DNA from: an uncultured Bacilli bacterium
GTDB lineage: Bacteria; Bacillota_I; Bacilli_A; RF39; UBA660
Assembly (NCBI GenBank): GCA_934098485.1
Contig: CAKOOH010000005.1
Span: 11,617 to 75,616 of the forward strand
Reading direction: 5' to 3'
DNA: 64,000 nucleotides
Below are positions 11,077 through 51,736 of the stretch, piece after piece. Made by a program: the position numbers and the translations under genes. The notes under the pieces are model-generated. The model did not search any database, was not told where the DNA came from, and saw nothing but the letters and a program-made list of their open reading frames with translations. Position 1 is the stretch's first letter, and each line of letters begins with the position of its first letter.

Positions 11077-11091
11077 GAAAGGAAAAACGAT

Positions 11092-12672: not shown

Positions 12673-12774
12673 TGTAGTAATTTTAAAGTATATATATTAT
12701 TAATATAATGAAAAATACTAAGAATCATGGTATAATATTTCTAATTTAATTTGATAAATAAAGGAGGTATTTAA

Positions 12775-15306: not shown

Positions 15307-15442
15307 AAGATAACCTTAAATTATCTTCTTTTTTTGTTTTTGCATCTAGTAACCTTGATTTTTAGCGCCTTCGGTAGTAAAATCTTAATAACATTTATAA
15401 ATAATAATAACTTAAATATTAATTTTCTTAGGGGGAGTTTAT

Positions 15443-16876: not shown

Positions 16877-16893
16877 AAAACTAAGGAGAAATT

Positions 16894-17559
16894 ATGAAAA
16901 GAATCTTAATTATTGAAGATGATAAAAAACTTGCTAATGAATTAAAATACCTATTAAACACTCACGGTTATGATGCTGATAAAATAGAAAGCTTTACCGG
17001 AAATATCGTAGATGACATTATCGCTTCTAGATCCGATTTAATCTTACTTGATATAAATCTTCCTTTCGAAAGTGGCGAAACCATCTTAAAAAACTTACGC
17101 AAAACATCTAATACACCCGTAATTATGCTAACTAGTAAAGTAGGGGAAATAGATGAAGTCTTATCCCTTAGTTATGGAGCCGATGATTATATTACTAAAC
17201 CGTATAACCCCACCATTTTACTTTTACATATCGAGGCCATTTTAAAAAGAACCATGCCTAAACAAGATATCATTAACTATAAAGGCGTGACAATAAACCT
17301 AAATAAAAGTTCCCTTACTGATGGCATCAAAGAAATACCTCTAACTAAAAGTGAAATGATTATCTTTAAATATTTACTAGATAATCAAAACAAAATTGTT
17401 TCAAGAGATGCTTTAATGACCGCCCTTTGGGATAATGACGACTATATAAATGATAATGCTTTAACTGTAAATATCAGTAGGCTAAGAGGCAAACTAGAAG
17501 CATTTCACATCGAAAAAAATTTAGAAACTAGAAAAGGGCAAGGTTACATCTTATTATGA
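16894..17559 (+). CDS. OmpR-family response regulator (BceR-like)
   Basis: Receiver Asp pocket (IIEDD, LILLDINLP) and a C-terminal winged helix. It overlaps the kinase gene by ATGA. Confidence 0.9.
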   Translation: MKRILIIEDDKKLANELKYLLNTHGYDADKIESFTGNIVDDIIASRSDLILLDINLPFESGETILKNLRKTSNTPVIMLTSKVGEIDEVLSLSYGADDYITKPYNPTILLLHIEAILKRTMPKQDIINYKGVTINLNKSSLTDGIKEIPLTKSEMIIFKYLLDNQNKIVSRDALMTALWDNDDYINDNALTVNISRLRGKLEAFHIEKNLETRKGQGYILL

Positions 17560-21465: not shown

Positions 21466-21494
21466 TTGACATGGGGTGGGGTTATTAGTACAAT
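21466..21494 (+). promoter_or_regulatory. Sigma-A type promoter TTGACA-17-TACAAT, module copy 1
   Basis: Consensus -35 with 17-bp spacing to the -10. It is followed by a ~30-nt leader with the ribosome-binding site GGGGTGA before the ATG at 21524. Confidence 0.6.
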
Positions 21495-21523
21495 TATATA
21501 GAAAATATCGGGGTGAATTAAGT

Positions 21524-23671
21524 ATGAGAAATTTTCTATATAAGAGAAAAATAATATATATAATTTTAATTGTAGTTGGGATTATTGCATTAACAGGAAC
21601 AACTTATGCGATATTTACAACAACGACCACTCAAGAAGGCACAAATACAATTAATACTTTAAAGTGCTTAGAACTAACATTTTCTAATCAAAGTGATGCG
21701 ATTAATTTAGATAATACATATCCTATGAGTGATGAAAGAGGAAAAAAGAATACACCTTATACATTTACTTTAACTAATAAATGTGGTGCATATGTGGAGT
21801 ATTCGCTAGGTCTAGCCATAAATACAAGTAATACTTTAGAAAATAAATATATAAAAACAATGTTTTCTTTAAAAAATGAAGATGGTGAAACAGTTCTTTT
21901 AACTGATAGATTAGAAGGAAAAGATTATGAAGGAAAGAAAACCTACATTCTTAAAAATGATGGCCTAGAAAATAATGCTAGTAAAGACTATAAACTAACA
22001 TTATGGATTGATGAGTCTTTAACTAATTCACAAATGAACTCAGATTTTAAAGGAAATATTATATTACAATTAAAGGCTACAAAATCACCTATTACAGTGG
22101 AATGTGATAAAGGGGATAACTCAGTAATTATAAATAAAGTTTCTTCTCAAAGTGAAGCCGTTTTTACTAAAAATTGTAAAGTTGTAGGAACCGCTAAGTA
22201 TGTTAGCAGTGATGAAGTACTTGTATATAAAGTGAAATTAGAAAACAGAAGTAATACTTATGAGGGGCTTGGTTTAAGTTATAGTCTAAGTAGTACCAAT
22301 ACATCAAATAATGGTAAAATTATGCCAAGTGTAAGTAAAGAGTATATTGGCACCGATGATGTTATATTAGGTAGTGGCATAATCGAAGGTGGAACTACGG
22401 TAGAACATGATTATAATTTAAAGATCTTTTTAAATAATATTGGAGTGCTTTCTAGTGATGTATTAAGTTCTGCATTTAAAGGACAAATAAAAATAGAATA
22501 TAGTACAGCACCTAAAGAACCAACAGGGTGGAGTGAAGCAAAAAGTGGAACCTTACTAGCCGGAATAAAAACTAATAATAATACATATACGCAGTTAATT
22601 ACTAGTCCTGGAAAAGAAACATCTTCTAGTAGTGAAGCCATCTTAGCCGCCGCACCCGATGATTATGGTATGAGTTATTATTATAGAGGAGCCGTAACCA
22701 ATAATTATGTAGAGTTTGCAAATAAATGCTGGAGGATTGTAAGAGTAACTGGAGATGGTTCAATCAAATTAGTTCTTCATAATGATAATGTAAATAATGT
22801 ATCTAGTCCATGTGCTGCATCAAATAATAGTAATACGGCTGCTTTTGCAAGATATAGTGGAACAACGTATACAACAGCATTTAATACAGCGGCAGATGAT
22901 AATACTTATGTTGGCTTTATGTATGGAGCAGCCGGATCAAGTACTTATGCTGCGACTCACGCAAATACCAATAAAAGTACGATTTTACAAAATTTAGAGA
23001 CTTGGTACAATAATAATTTAACTGCATACGAAAATAAACTAGCTGATACTATTTGGTGTAATGATAAAAGTACCCAAAAAAGTCAGTCTCTAATAACTAC
23101 TAGTTTAAATACTACCACAAATAAAATTACCAAAAGTACGTCTGCTTATCCCGGCTTAGGTTATGGAACTGATAAAACCCTATATAGTGGCCGCCAAAGA
23201 AGCAGAACAAATTACTATTTCACTAATTCCGCAAATCAGCAATATGGAACCGCCGGAACGGGACCAGATCTTATATGTCCAAATGACGATTTAGATGGCA
23301 ATTTATCAAAGTTTACCGCTTATGATACCATTAATGGTAATGGAGCCTTAGATAAAAAAATCGGCTTACTTACAACAGACGAAGTACTACTTGCTGGTAG
23401 TGTCGACTGGCATATATATGTAGCCCTTAATTATAAAATGGCAAGCATCACTAGTTACATAATAGAAAATACCAAAAATATAAAATACTGGACGTTATCC
23501 GCATATAATTTCGCAGATGAAGCAAATATTATTTATGTTGGAAGTGCTTACGCCCTTGGTAATGGTGTTGCCACCACTAGTCAAGGTTTAAGACCCGCAA
23601 TTTCTTTAAAAAGTGACACTACAATATCTAAAGGAACTGGTACTTCATCCAATCCATTTGTTATAAGTTAA
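21524..23671 (+). CDS. Secreted/surface protein with a SipW-cognate-type signal peptide and a TasA/camelysin-like N-domain (~190 aa), fused to a ~500-aa unassigned C-terminal region
   Basis: Signal anchor ...ALTGTTYAIFTTT parallels TasA ...LVGGGTWAAFND. The N-domain is paralogous (~65% identity) to the N-domain of the ORF at 58699. The track ORF starts at GTG 21476 inside the promoter; ATG 21524 with a ribosome-binding site is preferred. Confidence 0.6.
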   Translation: MRNFLYKRKIIYIILIVVGIIALTGTTYAIFTTTTTQEGTNTINTLKCLELTFSNQSDAINLDNTYPMSDERGKKNTPYTFTLTNKCGAYVEYSLGLAINTSNTLENKYIKTMFSLKNEDGETVLLTDRLEGKDYEGKKTYILKNDGLENNASKDYKLTLWIDESLTNSQMNSDFKGNIILQLKATKSPITVECDKGDNSVIINKVSSQSEAVFTKNCKVVGTAKYVSSDEVLVYKVKLENRSNTYEGLGLSYSLSSTNTSNNGKIMPSVSKEYIGTDDVILGSGIIEGGTTVEHDYNLKIFLNNIGVLSSDVLSSAFKGQIKIEYSTAPKEPTGWSEAKSGTLLAGIKTNNNTYTQLITSPGKETSSSSEAILAAAPDDYGMSYYYRGAVTNNYVEFANKCWRIVRVTGDGSIKLVLHNDNVNNVSSPCAASNNSNTAAFARYSGTTYTTAFNTAADDNTYVGFMYGAAGSSTYAATHANTNKSTILQNLETWYNNNLTAYENKLADTIWCNDKSTQKSQSLITTSLNTTTNKITKSTSAYPGLGYGTDKTLYSGRQRSRTNYYFTNSANQQYGTAGTGPDLICPNDDLDGNLSKFTAYDTINGNGALDKKIGLLTTDEVLLAGSVDWHIYVALNYKMASITSYIIENTKNIKYWTLSAYNFADEANIIYVGSAYALGNGVATTSQGLRPAISLKSDTTISKGTGTSSNPFVIS

Positions 23672-24968: not shown

Positions 24969-25132
24969 GTAAATTATAAATCAAAAACCTACAAAAGAAA
25001 AGATAACTACTAAAATGTTGCTTATTATCAATACATAACTATAAAAGTGTTGGAAAACATACAAAAATAGAAATATATTTATTCACATTTCGCCTATAGA
25101 ATAATAGAATGTATAGCGAAGGAGAAATTTAT

Positions 25133-28100
25133 ATGAAAAAATTTGCTAAAAAAATATGCGAAAAGAAAAAGTTAATCATATTTATATCAGCCTGCTTATT
25201 AGTCTTATCTTTTATTGGTATGTCCTTAACTAGAGTAAATTATGATATTTTAGTGTACTTACCAGAAGATATTGAAACTATCAAAGGTCAAAATATCTTA
25301 ACTGAAGATTTCGATATGGGTTCTTATTCCATCGCGGTCATTGAAAACTCTAAAGGAAAAGATATCCTAAAATTAGAAGAAAGAATTAAAAAGGTTGAAG
25401 GAGTAAATAACGTTGTATCTTTATATGATGTAATTGGTACTAATATTGATATCAATATGTTGCCAAGTGAAATTAAAGATCATTTCCATGAAGAAAATAC
25501 CGACATGCTATTTATTACCTTTGCTGGTGGTACATCAAGTGAAGAAACTATTAATGCAGTTAAAGAAATTCGTACTCTTGATGACAATTTAAATCTTGGT
25601 GGGATGAGTTCCATGGTTCTCGATACCATGAATTTGTCTGAAAGTGAAATTACCATTTATATTATTATTGCGGTTGCTCTATGTACTTTAGTCTTAGAGT
25701 TATCCCTAGATTCATATGTAGCCCCTATATTACTTTTACTTAATATTGGTGCTGCTATCCTAGTAAACTTAGGAACAAATGTCTTTCTAGGCCAAATATC
25801 CTATATAACTAAAGCCTTAGTTGCTGTTTTACAATTAGGTGTTACTACTGATTTTTCTATTTTCTTATACCATTCATATGAAGATAAAAAGAAAAAATAT
25901 AAAGATAAAGAAGAAGCTATGTCCGAAGCCATTTCTGAAACATTTACATCTGTTATTGGTTCATCCCTAACAACTATTGCTGGCTTCCTAGTTCTATGCT
26001 TTATGCAGTTAACTTTAGGTAAAGATTTAGGCATCGTTATGGCTAAAGGTGTTTTACTAGGTTTAGTATCTGTTCTTACTTTATACCCTTGCTTAATTTT
26101 AACATTTGATAAATTTCTAGAAAAAACTAAACATAAGAGTTTATCATTAAACTTTAATAAACTAAACACCTTTGTTGTTAAACATCATGTCATTTTATTC
26201 TGCATCTTCTTAGTATTACTTGTTCCTATGTATCTATCTTACCGTAAATGTGAAGTTTACTATAAAATCGATAGATCCTTACCAGATACTTTAGAAAGTA
26301 TTAAAACTAATGAATACTTAAAAGATCATTACAATATCGTAAGTCCTGAAATTATTTTATTAGATGCTAAAGATAAACCTAATAAAGTAAACGCTTTAAC
26401 TGATGAACTTAGAAAAGTTGAAGGAGTCGATTTTGTATTATCATTTGATAAATTACAAGAATATGGCTTTACAGAAAATATGTTAAGTGAAGATATTCTA
26501 AAAATATTTAAAAATGATAAATATCAAATGATTTTAGTAAACTCATTATATGAAGTAGCATCTGATGAGCTAAATAATCAAATAACTATTGTAAATGATA
26601 TCGTTAAAAACTATGATGAAAATGCCATAGTAGCAGGTGAGGGGCCTTTAATGAAAGACCTAATAACTACTAGTAATACTGACTTTAATAACGTTAATAC
26701 TTATTCAATTGTCATTATCTTACTAATCTTATTATGTGTTCTTAAAAATGCTTTCTTGCCTATACTACTTATTGCCGCTATCGAATTTGCTATCTTTACT
26801 AATATGAGTATTTCTTACTATAGTGGTGCCGTTTTACCATTTGTTGCTCCAATTGTTCTTGGTACTATTCAGTTAGGTGCTACTATCGATTATGCTATCT
26901 TACTTACAACTACTTACAAAAATAATCGTAAAGAAACTAAAGACAAAAAAGAAGCGATGATTAAAACTTTAAATTATAATGGTGCATCTATTTTAACTAG
27001 TGGTTTATGCTTCTTTGCTGCTACCTTTGGAGTAGGGGTATATTCCGATATAGATATGGTTGGTTCTCTATGTACTTTAATTAGCCGTGGTGCTTTAATA
27101 AGTATGTTTATTGTTATCACTGTTTTACCAGGAATATTATTAATAAGTGATAAATTATTTATCAAAGAAGAAAGGAAAGATAATATGAAAAAAAATAATA
27201 AAAAATTAGCTGTATTAGCTCTTAGTGCTTTTATGCTAACTGCTAATGCCCTAAACGTTAATGCTTTAACAAAAGTAGAAACTGTTTATGGTAAATTAGA
27301 TTCCACAGGAAAAAGCAAATCTATTTATATAAATGAAAGACTTTTAAATAGTTCTAAATTAAATCAAATAAATGATTATACGGAACTTAAAAATATTTTA
27401 AATATTAATGGTGATGAAACTTACACTATTGATGGTAACAAAATAACTTGGGAAAGTAATGGAAACAATATTTTCTATCAAGGAACTTATGAAAAATCTT
27501 TACCTATAAATATCTCTATCTCATATAAATTAGATGGTAAAGACATTAAACTTGAAGATTTACTTGGTCAAAAAGGTAAAGTAGAAGTAACTATTAAATA
27601 TGTTAATAATGATAAACATACCGTTAAAATTAATGGTAAAAATGAAACTATGTATACACCATTTACTATTATGTTTGGTACTATTTTACCAAGTGATGCT
27701 GAAAATATCAGTGTAACAAATGGTAAAATAATTTCTACTGGTACTAAAAATGTTGTAGTTGCCTTAAGTGCGCCTGGCCTTTATGACAATTTAAAACTTG
27801 ATAATTTAAAAGACTTAAATAAAATTGTCTTATCTTATAATACTGATAACTTTGAGCTTCCATCAATGTACAATGTTGTTAGTCCTAAATTAATATCAAG
27901 TAGTGATATTAGTAAACTAAATGATTTAGATAAAATCTATAGTAAAGTTGATGAATTAAGTCAAAATATGGATTTAATAGATAACAGTACTAAAGAATTA
28001 AAAAATGGTTCTAATTCTTTAAAAAGTGCTTTATCTTCATCTATTAATACTTTAAAAAATGATAAAAGTAATGCTTTAAATGAAGCTGCTTTAAAAGGCA

Positions 28101-28963
28101 TTGTTGATGCTGCTGTAAGTGGTGTAAATGAAACATTCACTGATGAATATAAAAAAGCCATCGCTGATTCTGCTTGGGAAACTGTTAAAGCAAATTTAAA
28201 TGAAACAGATGAAAACTTACAAAATAGTATTTCTGAAACTGTTAAAAATAATTTAACGGCTGCTATTACTAAATATATTGAATTTAAACAAATTGATATT
28301 GTAAATGATACTAAAGTATGTTTAACTGCTACTAAAACTTTAGAAGCTTTAGGAAAAACTCCTGATGAAATGACTCCTGAAGAAAAACAAAGTTGTGCTA
28401 ATGTTAATGAAATAAATACCTTACAAAATATTTTAACTGAAAGTTATACTAGCACTGCTACAGAAGTAAGCTCTAAAGTAACTATGGGTGTTGCTGAAAA
28501 AGTATCTAAAAATGTTGCTGTATCTGCTAGTTATAATGCTGCTATAAATACCGCTAAAAGTGTATCTTCTAGTGTATCAACAAATGTTGCTAATAGTGTC
28601 AAAACTGCTGCAACTAATTCCTTTGCTACTTCTCTAAATACTTTATATGAAAACATTTCTTTAATTGATAATGGCTTAAATGAACTATCAAGTGGTGTTA
28701 CTAAATTTAATAATGAAGGAATTAAAACTATCGCCAGTCTAGTAAATAATGATGTCAAAGGATTATCTGAAAGACTAGAAAAAACTGCCTCTTTAGGAGA
28801 AAACTATAAATCTGTTATGAATCATAATAACTTAGATAAAGATAGTGAAACAAAATTTGTTTTAGTTGTTGATGGTGAAAAGAAAGAAGAAACTAAAAAC
28901 ACTACTGTTAAAGAAAATACTAAAACATCTCTATGGCAAAAAATCAAAAATATCTTCAAATAA
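25133..28963 (+). CDS. MMPL/RND-superfamily membrane transporter with a ~600-aa C-terminal extracellular extension
   Basis: Two 6-TM bundles separated by soluble loops (MMPL architecture) in residues ~1-690, then an Asn/Ser/Thr-rich non-membrane tail. The ATG at 25133 has the ribosome-binding site GAAGGAG. Confidence 0.75.
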   Translation: MKKFAKKICEKKKLIIFISACLLVLSFIGMSLTRVNYDILVYLPEDIETIKGQNILTEDFDMGSYSIAVIENSKGKDILKLEERIKKVEGVNNVVSLYDVIGTNIDINMLPSEIKDHFHEENTDMLFITFAGGTSSEETINAVKEIRTLDDNLNLGGMSSMVLDTMNLSESEITIYIIIAVALCTLVLELSLDSYVAPILLLLNIGAAILVNLGTNVFLGQISYITKALVAVLQLGVTTDFSIFLYHSYEDKKKKYKDKEEAMSEAISETFTSVIGSSLTTIAGFLVLCFMQLTLGKDLGIVMAKGVLLGLVSVLTLYPCLILTFDKFLEKTKHKSLSLNFNKLNTFVVKHHVILFCIFLVLLVPMYLSYRKCEVYYKIDRSLPDTLESIKTNEYLKDHYNIVSPEIILLDAKDKPNKVNALTDELRKVEGVDFVLSFDKLQEYGFTENMLSEDILKIFKNDKYQMILVNSLYEVASDELNNQITIVNDIVKNYDENAIVAGEGPLMKDLITTSNTDFNNVNTYSIVIILLILLCVLKNAFLPILLIAAIEFAIFTNMSISYYSGAVLPFVAPIVLGTIQLGATIDYAILLTTTYKNNRKETKDKKEAMIKTLNYNGASILTSGLCFFAATFGVGVYSDIDMVGSLCTLISRGALISMFIVITVLPGILLISDKLFIKEERKDNMKKNNKKLAVLALSAFMLTANALNVNALTKVETVYGKLDSTGKSKSIYINERLLNSSKLNQINDYTELKNILNINGDETYTIDGNKITWESNGNNIFYQGTYEKSLPINISISYKLDGKDIKLEDLLGQKGKVEVTIKYVNNDKHTVKINGKNETMYTPFTIMFGTILPSDAENISVTNGKIISTGTKNVVVALSAPGLYDNLKLDNLKDLNKIVLSYNTDNFELPSMYNVVSPKLISSSDISKLNDLDKIYSKVDELSQNMDLIDNSTKELKNGSNSLKSALSSSINTLKNDKSNALNEAALKGIVDAAVSGVNETFTDEYKKAIADSAWETVKANLNETDENLQNSISETVKNNLTAAITKYIEFKQIDIVNDTKVCLTATKTLEALGKTPDEMTPEEKQSCANVNEINTLQNILTESYTSTATEVSSKVTMGVAEKVSKNVAVSASYNAAINTAKSVSSSVSTNVANSVKTAATNSFATSLNTLYENISLIDNGLNELSSGVTKFNNEGIKTIASLVNNDVKGLSERLEKTASLGENYKSVMNHNNLDKDSETKFVLVVDGEKKEETKNTTVKENTKTSLWQKIKNIFK

Positions 28964-31019: not shown

Positions 31020-31679
31020 ATGAATAAAAACGTAATAACTGGTATTATACTAGGAATCATCGTTTTAATCTTGTGCTATATCGCATTTAATTGGGAAAAA
31101 GAAACTGTAATAGATGAAACTCCATCATATACTATTACTAATGATTCATTAAAATTCAAAAAAGAATTTGAAGCAAATAATGATAAGAAAAATAAAGTTA
31201 ATATTTCCATTAAAAATTATAGTACTGTTACATATTCATCATATGAAGAAATATTTAAGAAACTAGAATCAGATGAAAGTTATATTCTTTTCTTTGCATC
31301 AAGTACTGATGAAAATTCTCGAATAATGGCTTCTATCTTAGTTGATAAAGCCCTTACTTTAAAAGAAGATATTTATTATTTAGATATAACTAATGATGTT
31401 GACAAAAAAGAATTAACTAAAGATGGCAAAATTAAAACTATCAAAAAAGGTTCTGATAATTATTATGAATTAGTTAAAAAACTAAATGGTTATTTGCCAT
31501 CTTATGAAGGCCTTAAAGATGATACTATCAAAAGAGTATACATCCCTACAGTAGTTTTTGTATCTAAAGGCAAAATTATTAAAATGGTAAATATTCCATC
31601 TGAAATTGATAATAGAAAATATAGTAAAACTTTATCTGATGAAGAACTAAAAATATTAAGTGATGCTTTAAATGTTTAA
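31020..31679 (+). CDS. Membrane-anchored hypothetical protein (N-terminal TM, ~190-aa extracytoplasmic domain)
   Basis: Signal-anchor ITGIILGIIVLILCYIAF. It is followed by the terminator at 31681-31712. Confidence 0.5.
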   Translation: MNKNVITGIILGIIVLILCYIAFNWEKETVIDETPSYTITNDSLKFKKEFEANNDKKNKVNISIKNYSTVTYSSYEEIFKKLESDESYILFFASSTDENSRIMASILVDKALTLKEDIYYLDITNDVDKKELTKDGKIKTIKKGSDNYYELVKKLNGYLPSYEGLKDDTIKRVYIPTVVFVSKGKIIKMVNIPSEIDNRKYSKTLSDEELKILSDALNV

Positions 31680-31680
31680 A

Positions 31681-31712
31681 TAGAAAGTAAGAAAATACAC
31701 TTTCTATTTTTA
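31681..31712 (+). terminator. Rho-independent terminator (AGAAAGT-aagaaaatac-ACTTTCT + T-run)
   Basis: Read directly. An extended -10 TGATATAAT follows at about 31720-31729. Confidence 0.55.
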
Positions 31713-31753
31713 TTTTCTTTTGATATAATTACCTTAGAATGCGGAGGCCTGTT

Positions 31754-33418
31754 ATGAAAAAAGGATTTACCTTAATTGAAATGATAATATCTGTTACTCT
31801 TCTTGCATTTATTGCCGTTATAATTATGATTAATCTTAATAAAAATATTAAAGACCAAGAAGCTAAAGAGTATGCTGAATTTGTTGAGAAAGTTAAAGCT
31901 GCCGCTAATATTTATATGGCCGCTAATCCTGATTCAGAAGCATTTGCCAAAGACGAAAACGGTTATAATATTATTAGTATTGAACTTTTAGAAGAGTCTG
32001 GGTTATTAAGTGCCGATTCTCTTATTGATCCTGAAACAAATCTTCGTTTAAGTGATGAATCTACCGATGTTTCTAAAAAATATATTAAAATTTATGATGA
32101 TGAAAAATTAGAAAATAATGAAAAATCCGAAGCGACTTTAATTGAATATCCTGCTACAGGAGAAATCAATAAATATATAAGAACTGTAGAATATGAAATG
32201 AATGGCTTTGGTTCTTGTAACACTCAAAAACCAGTTGTAGGAGAAACTATCAGTATATGTAATCCTACTGATGATAATGCTACCTTTGTTAAATGGTTTT
32301 TAGATAGTGAATTAAGTAGTGAAGGTCCTAATGGTAATGACGAATATAAACCAATGGAAGATGTAAAATTTTATGCTAAATGGTATAAAAATAAAAGTTC
32401 AACTATTAGAGCGATGAAAATAGAAAGTGCCACTTCTAATCATGATGATTACAAAGTAAAAGTAACTTTAGATATTATCGATGTTTATGGTGGAAAATTA
32501 AAAGTATGTCTAAGTAAAACCAACAATATGGATACTTGTCAAAACTGGGAAGAAATTGATTCTGCTAAAGATTCTGTAACTACATATACTAAAGAAGTAA
32601 ATTTACAAGAAATGTTTGATTCTAGTTACACCACTGGTTCTGGAAAAAGTGCCAAATTATATGCTTTTGTTCAAAATACGGCATATGAAGAAGCCTTAAA
32701 AGAACGTAGAAGTACGACTAATTTAGTTGCATCAGCATATAAAACCTATAAAATATATTTATTTTGTACTGAAGTAACTGTAACATCAGAGGGAACTTAT
32801 GGTGATTGCTCAGCCCAATGTGGTGGTGGCACTAAAAGCAGAATGAATAAAGTTAAAGACAAATATTATGATGCATCATATATATTATGTGCTGATTCTA
32901 AAGAAGAAACAAGCTGTAATACAATGGATTGTTGTTCTAGTACCGTTAAGCAAGAAGGAACATATGGTGCTTGCTCAGCCAAATGCGGTGGTGGTACACA
33001 AAGTATGACTATCAATTATGTATCTGCATATGATAGCAGCAAAGTTTGTAGTTCAAAAACTGAAACCAAACAGTGTAATACCCAAGATTGTTGTTCATCA
33101 ACATATGCATCATACTCATATGGTGCTTGCTCAGCATCTTGTGGATCAGGATCGCAAAGTGTAACCATAAATTATTATTCATCATATGATAACCGCTATT
33201 GTAGTAGTGAATCCACTAGTCAGACATGCAATGCTGGAAGTTGTTGCCCGGATGGATATAAGGAAGCGTATGGACAATTTGGATGTAGTAATCCTAATAT
33301 TGGTTGTTATAAGTTAAGATACAGAACCAATGAATGCTGGGAATGCAATTCATGTGGTAATTGGGGTGAACAAGTTTGGACTAACAATGGTTATTGTATA
33401 AAATGGGTTTGCCCATAG
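31754..33418 (+). CDS. Type IV prepilin-like protein (class III signal MKKG|FTLIEM) with a large C-terminal domain ending in three thrombospondin type-1-like Cys repeats plus a Cys-rich cap
   Basis: Prepilin peptidase motif G|FTLIEM with Glu at +5 and a 20-aa hydrophobic helix. Three repeats contain CSAxCGGGTxS(R/M)...C...CNTxDCC. The ribosome-binding site GGAGG 7 nt before the ATG at 31754 is preferred over the ATG at 31739. Confidence 0.7.
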   Translation: MKKGFTLIEMIISVTLLAFIAVIIMINLNKNIKDQEAKEYAEFVEKVKAAANIYMAANPDSEAFAKDENGYNIISIELLEESGLLSADSLIDPETNLRLSDESTDVSKKYIKIYDDEKLENNEKSEATLIEYPATGEINKYIRTVEYEMNGFGSCNTQKPVVGETISICNPTDDNATFVKWFLDSELSSEGPNGNDEYKPMEDVKFYAKWYKNKSSTIRAMKIESATSNHDDYKVKVTLDIIDVYGGKLKVCLSKTNNMDTCQNWEEIDSAKDSVTTYTKEVNLQEMFDSSYTTGSGKSAKLYAFVQNTAYEEALKERRSTTNLVASAYKTYKIYLFCTEVTVTSEGTYGDCSAQCGGGTKSRMNKVKDKYYDASYILCADSKEETSCNTMDCCSSTVKQEGTYGACSAKCGGGTQSMTINYVSAYDSSKVCSSKTETKQCNTQDCCSSTYASYSYGACSASCGSGSQSVTINYYSSYDNRYCSSESTSQTCNAGSCCPDGYKEAYGQFGCSNPNIGCYKLRYRTNECWECNSCGNWGEQVWTNNGYCIKWVCP

Positions 33419-33430
33419 AAAGAAGGTATT

Positions 33431-34228
33431 ATGAAAAATAATAAAAAAGTGTTTATAATTGTAGGATTTCTAATATTCCTTTTTCTAAGTTTAATAATTA
33501 TCCTAATATTAAATAAAAAAAATATTTTAAATCCTAATCCCCAAACCACAACTAAAGAAATAGAACTCGATCCTAAAAACTATGCTCCCGCCATTGCTAG
33601 TTCACTAAGTTATTTTAATAATTGCAATACTGGTTACAAGTTTGATTTTGGCAATAAAGACAAAATAGAATACAATGACTTATCTACGGATTTTATATAT
33701 AATACAGTATACAATTACTTATATAATCAAAATAAAATAAAAATAACTAAAAGTGATAATCCTAATAAAGAAGCCATATTATCCGAAACTAATTATATAG
33801 AAGAAGAATTTTCTTTAGATGCTTTTCTATCTGCTTATCAGTACTTATATGGAATTAATTCCCAAGACATTAAATATGAAAATAGTTTTAAAATAGGGCA
33901 GTATACATTTACTTTAAATAACAATAAATTCTATACTAAAAAAACATCAAGTCCAGATTGCTTTTCTAATAATACGACAAATTATTTATTAGTAAACCAA
34001 AAATTAGGCAAAGATTTTATAGAAATAACCTATATAGTTTATTATTCCAAACATGAATATGCAGATAATGTAATGAATGAGTATGCTGTGAATATCGATA
34101 ATGGCGAAATTATTTGTAAAACATCTAACGTAAACAGTACGGAAAACATTGATAAATTGACTAAATATAGCTTTACTTTCATCAAAAAAGGAAATAATTA
34201 TATTTTTAATAACATAACAAAATCATAA
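33431..34228 (+). CDS. Membrane-anchored partner protein A1 (paralogue of 34242-35027)
   Basis: N-terminal TM. Motifs shared with its paralogue: CNTGY.FDF, ...KYSFTFIKKGNNYIFNN. No homology is recognised. Confidence 0.5.
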   Translation: MKNNKKVFIIVGFLIFLFLSLIIILILNKKNILNPNPQTTTKEIELDPKNYAPAIASSLSYFNNCNTGYKFDFGNKDKIEYNDLSTDFIYNTVYNYLYNQNKIKITKSDNPNKEAILSETNYIEEEFSLDAFLSAYQYLYGINSQDIKYENSFKIGQYTFTLNNNKFYTKKTSSPDCFSNNTTNYLLVNQKLGKDFIEITYIVYYSKHEYADNVMNEYAVNIDNGEIICKTSNVNSTENIDKLTKYSFTFIKKGNNYIFNNITKS

Positions 34229-34241
34229 TAAGGAATTTACT

Positions 34242-35027
34242 ATGAAAAGACAAAACTATAAAAAATTAAAAATAACTTTAATTACCGGTTTATTATTTAT
34301 TTTAACTGTGGGCTTTGGCCTTATTTATCTTCTTAATTCTAAAGAAAAACAGCCCATTTTCGATAATTCCAAAGTTACTCATAAAATAGATAACTCTGAT
34401 ATAACAACTTTATTAAACAAGATAACTTCGTCTTATGGTACTTGTAACACCGGCTATGCCTTAGATTTCAAAGAAAAAAATGTTCTTTTAGCAAATGAAT
34501 TAGATGAAAATTTTAAATATAATATAATTTATAATATTTTAAAAAGAAATAATAAGATAGTTAAGCAGTACAAAACTAAAAATGAACAAACCACTGAAGA
34601 ACCAGCATCTTTTTTCGATAAAACTAAATACACCGAAATATTAACTATCAGTGATTTTACAGAAGTTTATACAAGTTTATTTGGTTATAAACCAGAAGAA
34701 ATGCTCCCATCCTTTAAATTAGGTAACAAAATATATTCTTCCAATGGTAGTAGTTATTCGGCAAATATTGATGAAGCCGAAGAAGAAGATTGTACTTACA
34801 GTACCAAATATTCTATCTACTTTGCCACTTCTTCTAAAGAAGAAATTACTTTAGAATATATTTTATATTTTGAAACCAATAATAAAGCTTATACTGACGC
34901 TGATTTCAAAAATTCAGTATGTGGTTCTAGCAAAGTAAACGATTATAAAGATAATTTTATAAAATACCGTTTTACCTTTAAAGGAAATAATAATAATTAC
35001 GTTTTAAAAAACGTAAGTTTAGTTTAA
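34242..35027 (+). CDS. Membrane-anchored partner protein A2
   Basis: Paralogue of A1 (CNTGYALDF, KYRFTFKGNNNNYVLKN) with an N-terminal TM. Confidence 0.5.
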   Translation: MKRQNYKKLKITLITGLLFILTVGFGLIYLLNSKEKQPIFDNSKVTHKIDNSDITTLLNKITSSYGTCNTGYALDFKEKNVLLANELDENFKYNIIYNILKRNNKIVKQYKTKNEQTTEEPASFFDKTKYTEILTISDFTEVYTSLFGYKPEEMLPSFKLGNKIYSSNGSSYSANIDEAEEEDCTYSTKYSIYFATSSKEEITLEYILYFETNNKAYTDADFKNSVCGSSKVNDYKDNFIKYRFTFKGNNNNYVLKNVSLV

Positions 35028-35043
35028 TTAGGAAATATGTAAA

Positions 35044-36711
35044 ATGGAAAATAAGTTAAAAAAAGGGTTTACCTTAATTGAAATGATTATATCTGTTACT
35101 CTTCTTGCTTTTATTGCCGTTATAATTATGATTAATCTTAATAAAAATATTAAAGACCAAAAAGCTAAAGAGTATGCTGAATTTGTTGAGAAAGTTAAAG
35201 CTGCCGCTAATATTTATATGGCCGCTAATCCTGATTCAGAAGCATTTGCCAAAGACGAAAACGGTTATAATATTATTAGTATTGAACTTTTAGAAGAGTC
35301 TGGGTTATTAAGTGCCGATTCTCTTATTGATCCTGAAACAAATCTTCGTTTAAGTGATGAATCTACCGATGTTTCTAAAAAATATATTAAAATTTATGAT
35401 GATGAAAAATTAGAAAATAATGAAAAATCCGAAGCGACTTTAATTGAATATCCTGCTACAGGAGAAATCAATAAATATATAAGAACTGTAGAATATGAAA
35501 TGAATGGCTTTGGTTCTTGTAACACTCAAAAACCAGTTGTAGGAGAAACTATCAGTATATGTAATCCTACTGATGATAATGCTACCTTTGTTAAATGGTT
35601 TTTAGATAGTGAATTAAGTAGTGAAGGCCCTAATGGTAATGACGAATATAAACCAATGGAAGATGTAAAATTTTATGCTAAATGGTATAAAAACAAAAGT
35701 TCAACTATTAGAACGATGAAGATCGAAAGCGCTACATCTAACCATAATGATTACAAAGTAAAAGTAACTTTAGATATTATCGATGTTTATGGCGGAAAAT
35801 TAAAGGTTTGCATTAATAAAACCAGCAACGTAAATACTTGTCAAAACTGGGAAGAAATTGATTCCGTTAAAGATTCTGTAACAACGTATACCAAAGAAGT
35901 AAATTTACAAAAAATGTTTGGCTATAGTTATAAAACTGGCTCTGGTAAAAGTGCTACATTATATGCTTTTGTTCAAAATGCTGCTTATGATGATGCTGTA
36001 AAAGATAATAGAATTGCAACTAATTTAGTTGCATCAGCAAATAAAACTTATAAAATATATTTATTTTGTAGCGAGTTAACCGTAACAAGCACAGGAAAAT
36101 ATAGCGAATGTTCAGCCAAATGTGGTGGAGGTACTAAAAGTAGAACAAATAAAGTTAAGGACAAATACTATAGTACTTCTTATGTAACATGTGCCGATAA
36201 AACTGAAAAAACTAGTTGCAATACAGAAGGTTGCTGCTCAAAGACCGTTAAACAAGAAGGATTATATGGTGCCTGCTCAGCCGAATGCGGTGGCGGTACT
36301 CAAAGTAGAACCATCACCTATGTATCTGCGTTTGATAGCAGCATACCATGTGGTTCTAAAACTGAAAGTAAAAAATGTAATACCGACGATTGTTGTTCTT
36401 CAGTTTATGCATCATATTCTTATGGAACGTGTTCATCATCATGTGGTGGCGGATGGCAAAATATAACTATAACTTATTATTCATCATTTGACAATCGCTA
36501 TTGTAGTGAAGAAACCACTAATCAGGACTGCAATTCTGGAAGTTGCTGCCCAGATGATTATTATGAATTGTATAGTGATCGTTTTAGTTGTAATCCTGTT
36601 TGTTATACATTAAGACCAGCAGATAATATTTATGAAAATATTCATCATACTTGCCGCGATGGATCGAAGTATAGTGAAGATGGGTATTGTTATTATTATA
36701 TTTGTCCATAA
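35044..36711 (+). CDS. Type IV prepilin-like protein, paralogue 2, with thrombospondin type-1-like repeats
   Basis: MENKLKKG|FTLIEM. The first ~215 residues are almost identical to 31754-33418. The C-terminus has CSAKCGGGTKSR, CSAECGGGTQSR and CSSSCGGGWQN repeats. Confidence 0.7.
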   Translation: MENKLKKGFTLIEMIISVTLLAFIAVIIMINLNKNIKDQKAKEYAEFVEKVKAAANIYMAANPDSEAFAKDENGYNIISIELLEESGLLSADSLIDPETNLRLSDESTDVSKKYIKIYDDEKLENNEKSEATLIEYPATGEINKYIRTVEYEMNGFGSCNTQKPVVGETISICNPTDDNATFVKWFLDSELSSEGPNGNDEYKPMEDVKFYAKWYKNKSSTIRTMKIESATSNHNDYKVKVTLDIIDVYGGKLKVCINKTSNVNTCQNWEEIDSVKDSVTTYTKEVNLQKMFGYSYKTGSGKSATLYAFVQNAAYDDAVKDNRIATNLVASANKTYKIYLFCSELTVTSTGKYSECSAKCGGGTKSRTNKVKDKYYSTSYVTCADKTEKTSCNTEGCCSKTVKQEGLYGACSAECGGGTQSRTITYVSAFDSSIPCGSKTESKKCNTDDCCSSVYASYSYGTCSSSCGGGWQNITITYYSSFDNRYCSEETTNQDCNSGSCCPDDYYELYSDRFSCNPVCYTLRPADNIYENIHHTCRDGSKYSEDGYCYYYICP

Positions 36712-36930
36712 AAGAAATAATAAAATAAATAAAGATTCTATAGAAATAATATGCAGTTTATTATTCCAAGCATGAATTTATAGATGTTACGTTAATTAAG
36801 TAACTCATAAAGTAAATATTAATTAATTTCCAATAATATAAAGAGTGTTAGACAGAATTCTAATGCTTTTTCTTTACATTTATATTAAAAAAACTCTTGT
36901 TTTATTATATAATATTAATAGGTGATAAAA

Positions 36931-38010
36931 ATGCGTGTAATTATAACTGCTGGAGGTACTGGTGGCCATATCTATCCCGCTCTTGCTATTTTAAATAAAA
37001 TTAAAGAAAAAGAACCAAATTCCGAGTTTATCTATATTGGTACTCATAACCGAATGGAGAAAGATATTGTTCCTGCTGCGGGCTACCATTATGAATCTAT
37101 CGAGATTTATGGCTTTAGTAAAACTATGATAAAAAGAGATGTAAAAAATATTTCTTTAATTTATAAAGCCTATAAAAAATGTTTAAAAATAATGAAAGAC
37201 TTTAAACCTGACGTTGTTATCGGCGTTGGTGGTTACGTTACATTTCCTGTTATTATGGCCGCTAATAAATTACATATTAAAACTTTTATTCATGAACAAA
37301 ATAGTATTCCCGGTAAAAGTAATAAAGTTCTTGCCAAAAAGGCTGATCTAATAGGGGTAAGTTTTAAAGACTCTATAAAATACTTTAATCCGGAAAAATG
37401 TAAATTAACCGGTAATCCTTGTGGTGAAAATGCCTTAGATATTAAAGCCGCTAGTAAAACTAAATATCATATGCACGCTAATAAAAAAGGCGTCTTAATT
37501 GTTCAAGGAAGCCTTGGAAGTAATGTAATTAATAATAAAATGAAAGAATTTTTATCTAGTATTGATAATGAAAACTATGAAGTTTTATATGTTACTGGCA
37601 AAGATTATTATGAAGAATTTTCTAAAAATAAATTTAGTAAAAATGTTATAATCGTGCCATACGTTGATAATTTAAGTGCTTTAATAAAAGATATGGACTT
37701 AATTGTTACAAGGGCAGGAGCAAGTATTATAAGTGAAATTATGGCCTTAAGAAAACCAGCAATATTTATACCAAGCCCATATGTTGCTAATAATCATCAG
37801 TATTATAATGCTTTATCAATTAAAGATGCCCATGCTGGTGCCATGATTGAAGAAAAAGATTTAAATAAAGATATATTAAAAAATAAAATAAATGAAATCC
37901 TAAGTGATAAAAAGTTATACGCCGAATATGAAACAAATTTAGCAAAAATGAGTATTGATAATAGTAGTACATATATCTATGAATTATTAAAAGAATTAAT
38001 AAAGAAATAA
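36931..38010 (+). CDS. murG: UDP-N-acetylglucosamine--N-acetylmuramyl-(pentapeptide) pyrophosphoryl-undecaprenol GlcNAc transferase
   Basis: N-terminus MRVIITAGGTGGHIYPALAI (the G-loop of MurG). The ribosome-binding site AGGTGA precedes the ATG at 36931. Confidence 0.9.
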   Translation: MRVIITAGGTGGHIYPALAILNKIKEKEPNSEFIYIGTHNRMEKDIVPAAGYHYESIEIYGFSKTMIKRDVKNISLIYKAYKKCLKIMKDFKPDVVIGVGGYVTFPVIMAANKLHIKTFIHEQNSIPGKSNKVLAKKADLIGVSFKDSIKYFNPEKCKLTGNPCGENALDIKAASKTKYHMHANKKGVLIVQGSLGSNVINNKMKEFLSSIDNENYEVLYVTGKDYYEEFSKNKFSKNVIIVPYVDNLSALIKDMDLIVTRAGASIISEIMALRKPAIFIPSPYVANNHQYYNALSIKDAHAGAMIEEKDLNKDILKNKINEILSDKKLYAEYETNLAKMSIDNSSTYIYELLKELIKK

Positions 38011-39333: not shown

Positions 39334-39756
39334 ATGAAGAAAAATAATGGGTTTACATTAATTGAACTTTTAGCCGTTGTTGTTTTACTAGGAGTTTTAG
39401 TAACAATAGTAGTAACGCAAGGAACAGATATTTTTCATACAACGAAAAATAAAATTAGCAAGATAAATGAAAAAAACTTAAAAGACTCTGCTAGTTCTTT
39501 AGCTGATTCTATTCTTATGTGTGAACTAGATGATAATATATATAATGAATTAAATTTAGACCAAGGTAGTCGCAGCTGTTCTTATTTAAAAAATAAATTA
39601 TTTAATGATGGAGTGGAAGTAAGCGTTGAAAGTCTTAAAAAGTTAGATCTTTTTGAAGATGTATCAAATATTTGTAATGGTAACATGACTATTAAGGCAA
39701 ATGAAAGTGATTATAAATTAACTATTACATTTAATGAAGATTTAATATGCAAGTAG
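39334..39756 (+). CDS. Type IV prepilin/pseudopilin-like protein (MKKNNG|FTLIELLAVVVLLGVL)
   Basis: Class III signal peptide with Glu at +5. 140 aa. Confidence 0.7.
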   Translation: MKKNNGFTLIELLAVVVLLGVLVTIVVTQGTDIFHTTKNKISKINEKNLKDSASSLADSILMCELDDNIYNELNLDQGSRSCSYLKNKLFNDGVEVSVESLKKLDLFEDVSNICNGNMTIKANESDYKLTITFNEDLICK

Positions 39757-46922: not shown

Positions 46923-49100
46923 ATGGAAGCAGAAGTTTTAATTGGTTATGGCGCTAAAATAATAGATAAAGCCTTTTCTTATGATGTGCCTAAAAACTTA
47001 GAAGATAAACTAAAAGTCGGTATGAAAGTAGTCGTGCCTTTTGGCAAAACAACTACTAATGGTTTTGTCATTAATATTAAAAATAAAACAAGTGAAAATG
47101 AACTAAAATCCATAACCAGTATAGCAGATGAAACGTTCGTTTTAAATGATGAACTATTAAAACTCGGAAAATATATTAAAGAAACCACTTTATGCTCCCT
47201 AGTTACAAGTTATCAGTGCATGCTTCCTTCTAGTATGAAAATCAAAAATATTAAAAGTAGCTACCAAAAATATGATGAGTATCTTATCTTAAATAGTCGT
47301 GATTTAGCCAAGGACTTTATTAAGAATAATGCCCGTAAAAAGCGTGCCTTAACTTTACTTAATGATCTTCTAAATACAGATAAAGTATTAAAGAAGAACT
47401 ATTCATCCGCCATAGTAGAACCTTTACTTAATGAAAATATTATTAAAATTGTTAAAGAAAATAAATACCGCATTAATAAAACCAATGATAAAGAGACTGC
47501 TAAAAAATTAACGGATGAACAATTAAATGTCTATGAAAGTATTACTTCATCACTAAATACTAATGATATTTTTTTACTTTTAGGTGTAACTGGTTCTGGT
47601 AAAACGGAAGTATATATGCAAGTCATAGAAAAAGTTATTGCTGAAAAGAAAAATGTCATCATGTTAGTTCCCGAAATAAGTTTAAGTATGCAAATAGTAA
47701 ACCGTTTTTATGAACGCTTTGGTAGTAGTGTTGCTATTTTTCATAGTGCTTTATCTGAAGGTGAAAAATATGATGAATACCATAAAATATTAAATGGTGA
47801 TGTTCACTTAGTAGTTGGAACTAGAAGCGCCATCTTCGCGCCATTTCCTAATATCGGCTTAATCATTTTAGATGAAGAACAAAGTTCTAATTATAAGCAA
47901 GACAATAATCCTAGATATCATGCCAAAGACATTGCCATTTGGCGCAGTCAGTATCATCATTGTCCTATTATTTTAGGAAGCGCGACCCCTTCATTAGAAA
48001 GTATGGCAAGAGCAAGTAAAGGAGTATATAAACTTTTAACTTTAAAAAATAGAATTGGAAGTGCTAAACTTCCTAAAATTACTTTAGTCGATATGCAAGT
48101 AGAATATAAAAAAAGAAATATGATTGTAAGCGATAAATTAGACTCTCTTATCAAAGAAAGAATTAATAATCATGAGCAAGTTATCATCTTTTTAAATAGA
48201 AGGGGCTTTACCACTATAAAAACATGCAAAAATTGTGGTTTTACTTTTAAATGTCCTCACTGTGATATAACTTTAATTTATCATAAATCTTCTAACCATC
48301 TAAGATGCCACTACTGCGGATATACTTTATTAAATACTGATATTTGTCCTGAATGCCATGAAGAAGCCCTAACTTCATATGGCCTTGGTACAGAAAAACT
48401 AGAAGAAGAATTAAAAATAAGATATAAAGATGCTAATATTCTTAGAATGGATGCTGACACCACCAGTAAAAAGGGTAGTAGTGAAGCGATGATTAAACAA
48501 ATCGAAAATGGTGATATTGATATTATTATCGGCACGCAAATGATAAGTAAAGGTTTCGATTTTCCTAAAGTAACTTTAGTTGGTATTATTAATGCTGATG
48601 AAACTTTAAATATTCCTGATTTTCGTAGTGGTGAACGTACTTATGAATTAATAAGTCAAACCGCGGGAAGAGCCGGACGTAAAGACCTTCCCGGCGAAGT
48701 CATCATTCAAACCTTTAATCCTGAAAATAAAACGCTTTTATATGTTGCCAATAATGATTATTTAGGAATGTATAACTATGAAATGAATATTCGTAAAACT
48801 CTTAAATATCCACCATATTTTTATTTGACTATTATTAAAATTGCTTCTAAAGACTATAATATGGCCAGTAGTGAAATTTCTAAAGTTTATAGTTTTTTAA
48901 ATAAAAATTTAAATAATGTTATTATGTTAGGTCCAACTACCGCCCCAATGTTTAAAGTAAATGGTATTTACCGTTTTCAAATAATTTTAAAATATAAAAA
49001 TTATGAGTTCATCAAAAATACTTTAATATCACTTGATGATTTATATAAAACAAATACTAAAGTAAATTTAGAAATTGATAATAATCCTAGTAGACTTTAA
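46923..49100 (+). CDS. priA: Primosomal protein N' (replication restart helicase)
   Basis: Walker A GVTGSGKTEVY, DEEQ box and Cys-rich zinc-binding region (CKNCGFTFKCPHCD...CHYCG...CPEC). The ribosome-binding site AAAGGTGA precedes the ATG at 46923. Confidence 0.9.
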   Translation: MEAEVLIGYGAKIIDKAFSYDVPKNLEDKLKVGMKVVVPFGKTTTNGFVINIKNKTSENELKSITSIADETFVLNDELLKLGKYIKETTLCSLVTSYQCMLPSSMKIKNIKSSYQKYDEYLILNSRDLAKDFIKNNARKKRALTLLNDLLNTDKVLKKNYSSAIVEPLLNENIIKIVKENKYRINKTNDKETAKKLTDEQLNVYESITSSLNTNDIFLLLGVTGSGKTEVYMQVIEKVIAEKKNVIMLVPEISLSMQIVNRFYERFGSSVAIFHSALSEGEKYDEYHKILNGDVHLVVGTRSAIFAPFPNIGLIILDEEQSSNYKQDNNPRYHAKDIAIWRSQYHHCPIILGSATPSLESMARASKGVYKLLTLKNRIGSAKLPKITLVDMQVEYKKRNMIVSDKLDSLIKERINNHEQVIIFLNRRGFTTIKTCKNCGFTFKCPHCDITLIYHKSSNHLRCHYCGYTLLNTDICPECHEEALTSYGLGTEKLEEELKIRYKDANILRMDADTTSKKGSSEAMIKQIENGDIDIIIGTQMISKGFDFPKVTLVGIINADETLNIPDFRSGERTYELISQTAGRAGRKDLPGEVIIQTFNPENKTLLYVANNDYLGMYNYEMNIRKTLKYPPYFYLTIIKIASKDYNMASSEISKVYSFLNKNLNNVIMLGPTTAPMFKVNGIYRFQIILKYKNYEFIKNTLISLDDLYKTNTKVNLEIDNNPSRL

Positions 49101-49197
49101 ATTTTATCTCGGAATTCTTAATTCAAAAGATATCTTTTTTTCTTATTTTCTTTTGGAAAGTAGATTTTTTTATGATATACTGGAAAAGGTGATAAAA

Positions 49198-51690: not shown

Positions 51691-51736
51691 TCTAAAAACC
51701 ACTTATTAAAAATATAATTTAATAGGTGGTTTTATA

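Follow-up and report, generated by a model that had tools for sequence, protein, structure and literature searches.

Four adjacent genes between tsf and murG

The DNA examined here is a 64,000-nucleotide (nt) stretch of contig CAKOOH010000005.1 from an uncultured Bacilli bacterium, hereafter called the window. Downstream of tsf and an open reading frame (ORF) of 219 amino acids (aa), and upstream of murG, it carries four same-strand ORFs in the order A1-B1-B2-A2. A1 (31754-33418, + strand, 554 aa) and A2 (35044-36711, + strand, 555 aa) code for modular, type IV pilin-like proteins that end in thrombospondin type-1 repeats (TSRs). B1 (33431-34228, + strand, 265 aa) and its paralog B2 (34242-35027, + strand, 261 aa), which has the identical topology, are members of an orphan family whose genes pair with pilin–TSR genes. 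An initial annotation had described these four ORFs, and all of them exist as it described them. Taken together, the observations reported below make it probable, in our judgment, that A1-B1-B2-A2 is an operon-like cassette for modular-pilin TSR adhesins that are loaded onto a filament and diversified by recombination.

The spacers inside the cassette measure 12, 13 and 16 nt, and the four genes appear from this arrangement to form an operon-like unit. Two start codons can be considered for A1, since use of ATG 31739 would lengthen the protein to 559 aa. A GGAGG sequence at 31743-31747 lies 6 nt 5' of ATG 31754, and the gene caller applied to the independently assembled contig L001 picks ATG 31754 too. 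Because of this spacing and the matching gene call, we consider ATG 31754 the likelier start, as the initial annotation had assumed.

Modular, type IV pilin-like architecture of A1 and A2

Both A proteins begin with a class III prepilin signal, KKG/FTLIEM (the slash marks the cleavage position), followed by a hydrophobic helix. The N-terminus of A1 reads MKKG/FTLIEMIISVTLLAFIAVIIMINL, and that of A2 reads MENKLKKG/FTLIEM…. Residues G8, F9, L11 and E13 do not vary in an alignment of 32 homologs, and neither do the TSR cysteines. The N_methyl model (PF07963) scores 23.5 bits with A1 and 27.3 bits with A2 against a curated cut-off of 21.2, and the NCBIfam prepilin cleavage/methylation domain TIGR02532 scores 24.1 against 16.3. 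The prepilin N-terminus claimed for both proteins is therefore real, with N_methyl above its cut-off and the motif invariant among the homologs.

Downstream of the pilin module, both proteins also exceed the cut-off of 27 bits for Flg_new (PF09479), with scores of 27.4 for A1 and 27.5 for A2. The assignment of this segment as a Listeria-Bacteroides repeat, or InlB B-repeat, is supported by a fold match as well as by the hidden Markov model (HMM) score. Each A gene joins the N_methyl, Flg_new and TSP1 families in a single ORF, which is the make-up of a modular pilin, i.e. a pilin motif combined with at least one non-pilus domain.

An AlphaFold2 model of A2, computed from the 32-sequence alignment, has a mean predicted local distance difference test score (pLDDT) of 83.3. 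It begins with a helix at residues 11-61, which leads into a small β head of lower (medium) confidence. Two β-rich domains follow at residues ~148-216 and 220-337 (pLDDT above 90), and then three-strand units at 345-392, 401-445 and 454-496 (pLDDT ~85-93) and a less confident cap at 507-555. On the + strand of the window, the A2 modules are the signal plus helix α1 (35044-35226), the head (35227-35463), the InlB B-repeat (35485-35691), an immunoglobulin (Ig)-like domain (35701-36057), TSR1 (36067-36234), TSR2 (36235-36393), TSR3 (36394-36546) and a Cys-rich cap (36547-36708). The corresponding + strand modules of A1 are the signal plus α1 (31754-31933), the head (31934-32170), the InlB B-repeat (32192-32398), the Ig-like domain (32408-32764), TSR1-3 (32774-33253) and the Cys-rich cap (33254-33415). 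They were placed by Pfam and NCBIfam matches, by the map of cysteines and repeats, and by boundaries transferred from the A2 model.

We concluded that both A proteins have the architecture of modular type IV pilins, with a B-repeat, an Ig-like domain, three TSRs and a cap grafted behind the pilin module. The pilin part of this assignment is a prediction based on the N-terminal motif and helix rather than on a fold match of the head domain.

Thrombospondin type-1 repeats and a divergent cap

The C-terminal part of each A protein contains three tandem units of 52-57 aa, and each unit carries six cysteines and a CSxxCGGG core. The TSP1_spondin model matches three stretches in each protein and exceeds its cut-off of 41 bits in both (43 for A1, 54.7 for A2), as does TSP1_ADAMTS (31.1 and 29.9 bits against 23.8). 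The initial annotation had proposed the classic Pfam TSP_1 model (PF00090) as a check, and here the outcome is divided: A2 passes the cut-off of 21.6 with 27.3 bits, whereas A1 falls below it with 12.9 bits. The TSR identity withstands both tests that the initial annotation had named for it, HMM score and structural similarity. With the predicted A2 model as query, Foldseek returned TSRs of properdin (6rus_A, E 6.8e-7), thrombospondin-1 (7yyk, 5.5e-5), 1lsl (1.3e-4) and Sema5A (5.8e-3), and the probability is 1.00 for 6rus, 7yyk and 1lsl.

These repeats depart from their eukaryotic counterparts. No tryptophan occurs within the 12 residues before the core in any of the three units of A1 or A2, and [RK]x[RK] follows the core in one unit of three. 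The combination of a Trp ladder (WxxWxxW) with an Arg ladder (RxRxR) is absent from the TSRs of the window. The 69 pilin–TSR clusters, however, hold 161 cores, 88 of them with a tryptophan and 28 with WxxW, and distant relatives keep canonical WxxW…CSxxCGGGxxxRxR units, such as WSVWSSCSKSCGGGTQTRTRT in L010 and AWSGWSTCSKSCGGGTQSHSRT in L005. Because these relatives retain the Trp, core and Arg elements together, we consider the window TSRs to be a degenerate, Trp-less subtype of a genuine TSR lineage. All parts of the earlier description, namely three six-Cys units, Tyr/Gly in place of the Trp ladder and a Cys-rich cap, are upheld by these results. That description had overlooked the InlB B-repeat and the Ig-like domain that separate the pilin module from the TSRs, the near-identical first ~600 nt of A1 and A2, the decayed B-gene remnant 3' of A2 and two small prepilin genes elsewhere in the window.

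The distribution of cysteines is also informative. One cysteine of each ‘CC’ doublet probably belongs to the end of one unit and the other to the start of the following unit, an arrangement that resembles TSRs of the spondin/TRAP type. The cap holds eight cysteines in A1 and six in A2. The A proteins have even totals (28 and 30), consistent with an extracellular stalk in which all cysteines form disulfides. Divergence is greatest in the cap, where the paralogs are ~34% identical and the ratio of nonsynonymous to synonymous divergence (ω) is 0.45, compared to 0.15 in the pilin part.

An orphan family of membrane partners

B1 and B2 share 27-29% identity, an N-terminal transmembrane (TM) helix, a CNTGY-x-(F/L)DF motif and two invariant cysteines. 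In B1, the TM helix spans aa 4-27 and is followed by an α+β ectodomain. Paralogous single-TM partners are thus present between the A genes, as had been noted previously. Neither protein matches any family in Pfam, NCBIfam, PHROGs or PADLOC. A word-indexed homolog search with B1 found three clusters only, and an exhaustive profile search was needed: a profile made from five B members, run against 1.84 billion representatives, recovered only 46 proteins with an E-value of 1e-3 or lower; with few exceptions, these are 250-275 aa long and align end to end.

One distant member, P0148 (E 3.6e-23 to the profile), is encoded 9 bp 3' of a gene for an 801-aa N_methyl plus TSP1_spondin protein. Its neighborhood is unrelated to that of the window, with a tRNA methyltransferase on one side and a PEMT-family gene on the other, and therefore the A-B pair is conserved beyond the lineage of the window. 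For the most distant members, P0171 and P0180, there is no adjacent pilin or the contig is too short to show one. Other pilin–TSR genes abut genes for Cys-poor proteins of 145-420 aa that likewise have an N-terminal TM helix. An HMM of the B family matched none of the neighbors of distant pilin–TSR genes, and so we rejected the idea that every pilin–TSR protein has a B homolog; the resemblance of these neighbors to B1 and B2 is a topological analogy alone.

The spacer between A2 and murG contains a probable relic of a third B-type gene (36715-36785, + strand). About 57 nt of this relic are 84% identical to B1 positions 34009-34066, and a 2-nt deletion breaks the frame. In L003, a different B1-like remnant occupies the corresponding position between A2 and murG (E 0.003). 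The two relics suggest that an ancestral A-B unit was duplicated and that one B copy has since decayed. We concluded that B1 and B2 are membrane proteins with one N-terminal TM helix and that they form an orphan family genetically coupled to pilin–TSR genes.

A fixed chromosomal site with hypervariable alleles

The cassette occupies the identical site in all five related contigs (L001, L002, L003, L004 and L007). The gene order is A-B-B-A in L001, L003 and L004. In L002 it is A-B-B-A-A, with three pilin genes (620, 523 and 561 aa), and in L007 it is A(TSR)-B-B-A', where A' combines N_methyl with Flg_new and has no TSR matches. Over 17 kb, L001 is 99.99% identical to the window.

Comparison of the window with L002 reveals a steep rise in synonymous divergence (dS) at the cassette. 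Upstream, dS is 0.056 for the MMPL gene, 0.014 for rpsB and 0.047 for tsf, and the value for the 219-aa ORF is intermediate (0.28). It reaches 1.3-1.4 for the A genes, 1.16 for B1 and 1.05 for B2, and stands at 0.36-0.49 for the downstream genes murG, ftsQ and queH. In the same comparison ω is 0.27-0.33 in the cassette, compared to 0.03-0.17 in the flanks, and therefore constraint on the cassette is relaxed or diversifying.

The jump in divergence at the cassette borders is what one would see if a recently acquired island had been inserted between tsf and murG, with TSRs possibly derived from a eukaryotic host. Two further observations point the same way: eukaryotic TSR proteins occur among the homologs at 28-34% identity, and other lineages carry similar cassettes at different housekeeping sites, namely the polC–smc, parC–ylbD and tRNA-methyltransferase–PEMT junctions. 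For example, L010 has a pilin–TSR gene and a 267-aa partner at 7396-13290, between a topoisomerase IV/gyrase A-type gene and ylbD. The same topoisomerase/ylbD pair is only 46 bp apart in the window (49075-52108), and the two loci represent an occupied and an empty site, respectively.

Nevertheless, we regard recent acquisition as highly improbable. The site is shared by five of five related contigs, and no mobility genes, integrase, transposase or tRNA border were found at the cassette. The content of guanine plus cytosine (GC) is 25-31% in cassette and flanks alike, with no shift across the cassette. A phage or defense origin was also considered and set aside, as the cassette has no PHROGs or PADLOC matches. 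Furthermore, the closest TSR relatives of A1 and A2 are bacterial pilin fusions, not animal proteins. The suggestion that an accessory insertion interrupts the rpsB-tsf/murG neighborhood is consequently not supported: the locus is a fixed chromosomal site with allelic hypervariability, not a strain-specific insertion.

Evidence for gene conversion between A1 and A2

The two A genes of the window are not uniformly divergent. Positions 31757-32353 of A1 are 99-100% identical at the DNA level to 35059-35655 of A2. Counted along the genes, identity is 99-100% over nt ~100-600 but drops to 70-80% across the TSR units and to ~50% for the cap; at the protein level, the first ~225 aa of the two proteins are essentially identical.

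We tabulated mismatches per 100 nt for the six A genes of three strains. Against a background divergence of ~1% between the window and L003, the differences cluster at 35001-35500 and 36251-37000. Within L003, A1 and A2 differ by 35, 10, 17 and 34 mismatches per 100 nt across nt 1-400 and are nearly identical over nt 1301-1677, a tract in which A1 equals A2 in L004 as well. The window shows the reverse pattern, with a homogenized 5' tract (nt 101-600) and a divergent 3' end. The A1 of L004 matches the A2 of its own strain at nt 201-400, whereas the otherwise identical A1 of L003 differs there by 17 and 34 mismatches. Such tracts are best read as the footprints of repeated segmental gene conversion in both directions. 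Together with the divergence data, the allele comparisons indicate that the cassette diversifies by two routes, whole-allele replacement through recombination and segmental conversion between the tandem A paralogs. A search for inverted and tandem repeats yielded nothing convincing in the way of invertible promoters or slippage tracts.

Pilin–TSR proteins recur in uncultured gut Bacilli

Among the 120 best-matching clusters at 90% identity, there are 69 in which a prepilin motif lies within the 60 N-terminal residues and is joined by at least one TSR core. These proteins are ~370 to 960 aa long. Eukaryotic matches (SCO-spondin, hemicentin-like) span the TSR part only. All of the pilin–TSR loci that we fetched have 25-30% GC. 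The fusions are recurrent in uncultured low-GC gut Bacilli. A metagenome scan keyed to a generic pilin N-terminal pattern gave 17 matches to ordinary short pilins and is uninformative on the pilin–TSR context.

A false fusion, created by chimeric metagenome assembly or by eukaryotic contamination, is worth considering because the source is a metagenome-assembled genome of an uncultured organism and because an identical tract of ~600 nt in two paralogs can confuse assemblers. The distribution data make such an artefact extremely unlikely. The exact A2 protein is present on four contigs, close alleles (77-90% identical) occur on others, and related alleles were recovered on up to six contigs; the independently assembled L001 agrees with the window almost perfectly; and the pilin motif and the TSR cores share one uninterrupted ORF across all 69 clusters.

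The claim that TSRs are rare in bacteria consequently holds in part. It is adequate for characterized bacteria, but not for uncultured gut Bacilli, given these 69 clusters and one architecture that had been recorded previously. We take IPR000884 to be TSP1 and IPR013378 to be the Listeria-Bacteroides repeat. A published catalogue lists 264 modular-pilin architectures (Raynaud et al., 2021; PMC8179133), and its Dataset S1 contains IPR012902-IPR000884-IPR000884 once and several IPR012902-IPR013378 architectures. The cassette is therefore a member of a recognized class of modular pilins, in which the combination of pilin and TSP1 has already been catalogued once. Full-text searches of the literature returned no paper that discusses pilin–TSR proteins.

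A proposed role at the tip of a filament

Our preferred interpretation, that A1 and A2 are adhesins carried on a filament, can be laid out as a series of steps. A prepilin peptidase encoded elsewhere would cleave A1 and A2 after Gly, and the α1 helix would then retain each protein in the membrane. From there the A protein would enter a type IV or Com-type filament of small pilins as a subunit present in few copies, most probably at the tip. The TSR array would serve mainly as a rigid, disulfide-stapled spacer that projects the variable cap. We propose the cap as the ligand-binding end, mediating adhesion to host or microbial surfaces, because it is the segment with the greatest divergence. B1 and B2 may act as membrane-anchored helpers that chaperone, prime or dock these bulky pilins. 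The precedent is PilB of Streptococcus sanguinis, an adhesin with an argued tip location in which the pilin module presents a grafted adhesive module (PMC8179133). By analogy, we infer filament incorporation and adhesion, and a role as pilin-tip adhesin is plausible.

Candidates for the filament subunits exist in the window. A small orphan prepilin gene of 140 aa (39334-39756, + strand; N_methyl 32.9 bits, with NCBIfam support) lies between queH and ftsY and is conserved in L001-L004 and L007. Another, of 173 aa (52384-52905, + strand; N_methyl 34.3 bits, also found by motif scan), lies between ylbD and an AP endonuclease gene. Both stand alone amid housekeeping genes, and therefore prepilin genes are dispersed, not clustered, in this genome. 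We regard the two products as candidate filament subunits that may be linked to the cassette.

Several results weigh against the interpretation as filament-borne adhesins. First, the 64-kb window lacks genes for a prepilin peptidase, an assembly ATPase, a platform protein and PilMNO, and the ±10 kb around each pilin–TSR relative that we examined are free of pilus-assembly genes too. Second, solved pilins are missing from the top fold matches, and therefore the small head is defined only by the model and the N-terminal motif. Third, the Trp/Arg ladder, which binds ligands in eukaryotic TSRs, is missing, and so no ligand can be inferred for the TSRs of the window. Fourth, the model leaves unexplained how 28-30 cysteines would be oxidized in an anaerobic monoderm. 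Fifth, ω is below 1 everywhere, and positive selection is not demonstrated. Finally, the source of the mosaic alleles is short-read metagenome assembly, although every allele was recovered on 4-6 independent contigs.

Some of these points would be accommodated if A1 and A2 were never polymerized, and instead were membrane-anchored stalks in which the pilin-like N-terminus acts only as a signal-anchor, a stalk of ~500 aa crosses the wall to display the cap directly at the cell surface, and B1 and B2 are co-anchors or co-receptors. This arrangement agrees with the lack of pilus machinery near any locus, with the scatter of the genes among housekeeping genes, with the very small head of medium model confidence, and with the B partners being themselves anchored by an N-terminal TM helix. 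We regard it as the principal alternative, but an unlikely one. The strict conservation of G-1, F+1 and E+5 in the 32 homologs implies a requirement for processing and filament assembly that goes beyond a mere anchor, the two small classical prepilins in the window could build a filament, and modular pilins that have been characterized do assemble into pili (PMC8179133).

A different use of the same parts would make A1 and A2 minor pilins of a competence (Com) pseudopilus, with the TSRs and cap capturing DNA or donor cells. The best NCBIfam partial matches of the A proteins are to ComGE and ComGC; these matches, like one to GspG, are sub-threshold and confined to the N-terminus. Moreover, comEA- and comEC-like genes are located 2-10 kb from pilin–TSR genes in two unrelated contigs, L005 (21406-22334) and L009 (5476-8170), a proximity that we treat as a possible link to competence pili. 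As an account of the cassette, however, a competence role is very unlikely: the Com-family scores are far under their cut-offs (32 compared to 49-75 bits), the window has no com genes, the proximity to comE genes was seen in only two of the neighborhoods examined, and a hypervariable cap suits varied surface ligands better than DNA.

More speculatively, the A-B unit might be a self-contained, undescribed surface-display system of reduced-genome gut Bacilli, in which the B family, and not a classical pilus operon, handles the TSR stalks, and the tips are re-assorted by conversion. We think that this is rather unlikely. If it were true, the cassette would represent adhesin or antigenic variation in a commensal, and the abundant canonical WxxW/CSxxCGGG/RxR bacterial repeats would reopen the question of a metazoan or apicomplexan origin for TSRs.

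Flanking sequences and other features of the window

Immediately 5' of the cassette is the conserved 219-aa ORF (31020-31679, + strand), whose product is a membrane protein carrying a TM helix at its N-terminus. NCBIfam gives a weak match to a thioredoxin-like (PedC/BrcD) model (E 9e-5, 22 bits compared to a cut-off of 120), and this raised the idea of a catalytic oxidase for the TSR cysteines. The idea was discarded because the protein has no CxxC, its sole cysteine being located within the TM segment. The ORF is absent beside distant pilin–TSR genes, and its membership in the cassette is doubtful.

An AU-rich hairpin with a U-tract follows the 219-aa ORF (31678-31709, + strand; -8.6 kcal/mol and z = -2.1 relative to shuffled sequences by RNA folding). 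The consensus terminator scan did not call it, and the case for a terminator-like element is weak to moderate. If it is one, it would set the cassette apart from the rpsB-tsf unit. An extended -10 promoter-like element, TGATATAAT (31720-31728, + strand), is located 5' of A1 and was recognized by consensus match only. The consensus scan found no + strand terminator-like site within the cassette; in such AT-rich DNA the scan for promoters and terminators is uninformative, returning 52 sites where 41 are expected.

Other genes of the window also appear to code for unusual surface proteins. The ORF at 57048-58673 contains a Gly_rich_2 domain, and the next ORF (58684-60990) combines an ALK/LTK glycine-rich domain with three Flg_new repeats. 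The N-terminus of the latter (…TGTTYAIFTTTTT) is paralogous to that of the ORF at 21476-23671. An extra paralog of 644 aa is located between the MMPL gene and rpsB in L002 (5281-7215) and L007 (1760-3694), and is lacking in the window. In L010, an ALK_LTK_GRD protein (15214-17019) is encoded ~3 kb from the pilin–TSR gene. These Gly_rich_2 and ALK/LTK ORFs appear to constitute another family of variable surface proteins with a ‘eukaryote-like’ character.

Farther upstream, a 1284-aa MMPL-family transporter (25109-28963) has a C-terminal extension of ~600 aa with no family match, and its L002 counterpart is nearly identical. The window additionally codes for an AbiEi/AbiEii toxin-antitoxin pair and two Fic-domain proteins (11059-12527, 12775-13587 and 61212-62210).

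Comparison with known systems

Modular pilins illustrate how simple filaments acquire functions. To our knowledge, only vWA and lectin modules have been studied in such proteins. Adhesion by TSR arrays is characteristic of animal matrix proteins, complement properdin and malaria TRAP, and the cassette provides a well-defined example of a TSR array on a pilin module in an uncultured human-gut bacterium. To the known class the cassette adds a family of multi-domain TSR stalks, widespread among uncultured gut Bacilli and in gut metagenomes, together with an orphan family of conserved partners, gene locations away from pilus operons, and diversification by recombination and gene conversion. Reshuffling at the strain level is typical of loci under pressure from hosts, phages or competitors. 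If the proposed function is confirmed, the cassette would provide a handle on how uncultured Bacilli with small genomes attach in the gut, and the bacterial TSRs of this family should be useful for tracing the origin of the domain.

The window TSRs share with eukaryotic TSRs, including those of thrombospondin-1, properdin, F-spondin and apicomplexan TRAP/MIC2, the CSxxCGxG core, six cysteines per ~55 aa and an elongated three-strand fold. Unlike these domains, they lack the WxxW ladder and most of the RxR ladder, and they are bacterial and pilin-anchored. The C-mannosylation and O-fucosylation of eukaryotic TSRs do not apply to them. For B1 and B2, a comparison can be made with proteins of the VirB8/TraE/DotI type, in which an N-terminal TM helix precedes an NTF2-like ectodomain.

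The mosaic structure of the A genes recalls the pilE/pilS system of Neisseria, where segmental transfer between pilin paralogs, non-reciprocal in appearance, likewise produces mosaics concentrated in the exposed part. However, the pilS donors are silent and promoterless, whereas A1 and A2 are both full-length ORFs with start codons and ribosome-binding sites, and the sole degenerate element is the B-gene relic. The variation in A1 and A2 is seen between strains. No guanine-quadruplex or dedicated recombination element turned up at the locus, although no search was aimed at one.

CofB of enterotoxigenic Escherichia coli (ETEC), TcpB and GspK (PMC8179133) are likewise bulky minor pilins with extra β-rich C-terminal domains, and roles in capping or priming the filament and in partner binding have been proposed for them. 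Their extra domains are unrelated to those of A1 and A2 in sequence or fold, and they belong to diderm T4b or T2SS systems in which they are encoded within the machinery operons.

The closest parallel is provided by PilB and PilC of S. sanguinis, which carry a vWA and a lectin module, respectively (PMC8179133). These proteins and A1/A2 have in common a class III signal, a small pilin module and non-pilus modules, as well as monoderm hosts and a predicted tip location and adhesive role. In contrast to the single globular module of PilB or PilC, the graft in A1 and A2 is a four-part stalk, and the genes reside outside a pil locus as tandem paralogs with dedicated membrane partners.

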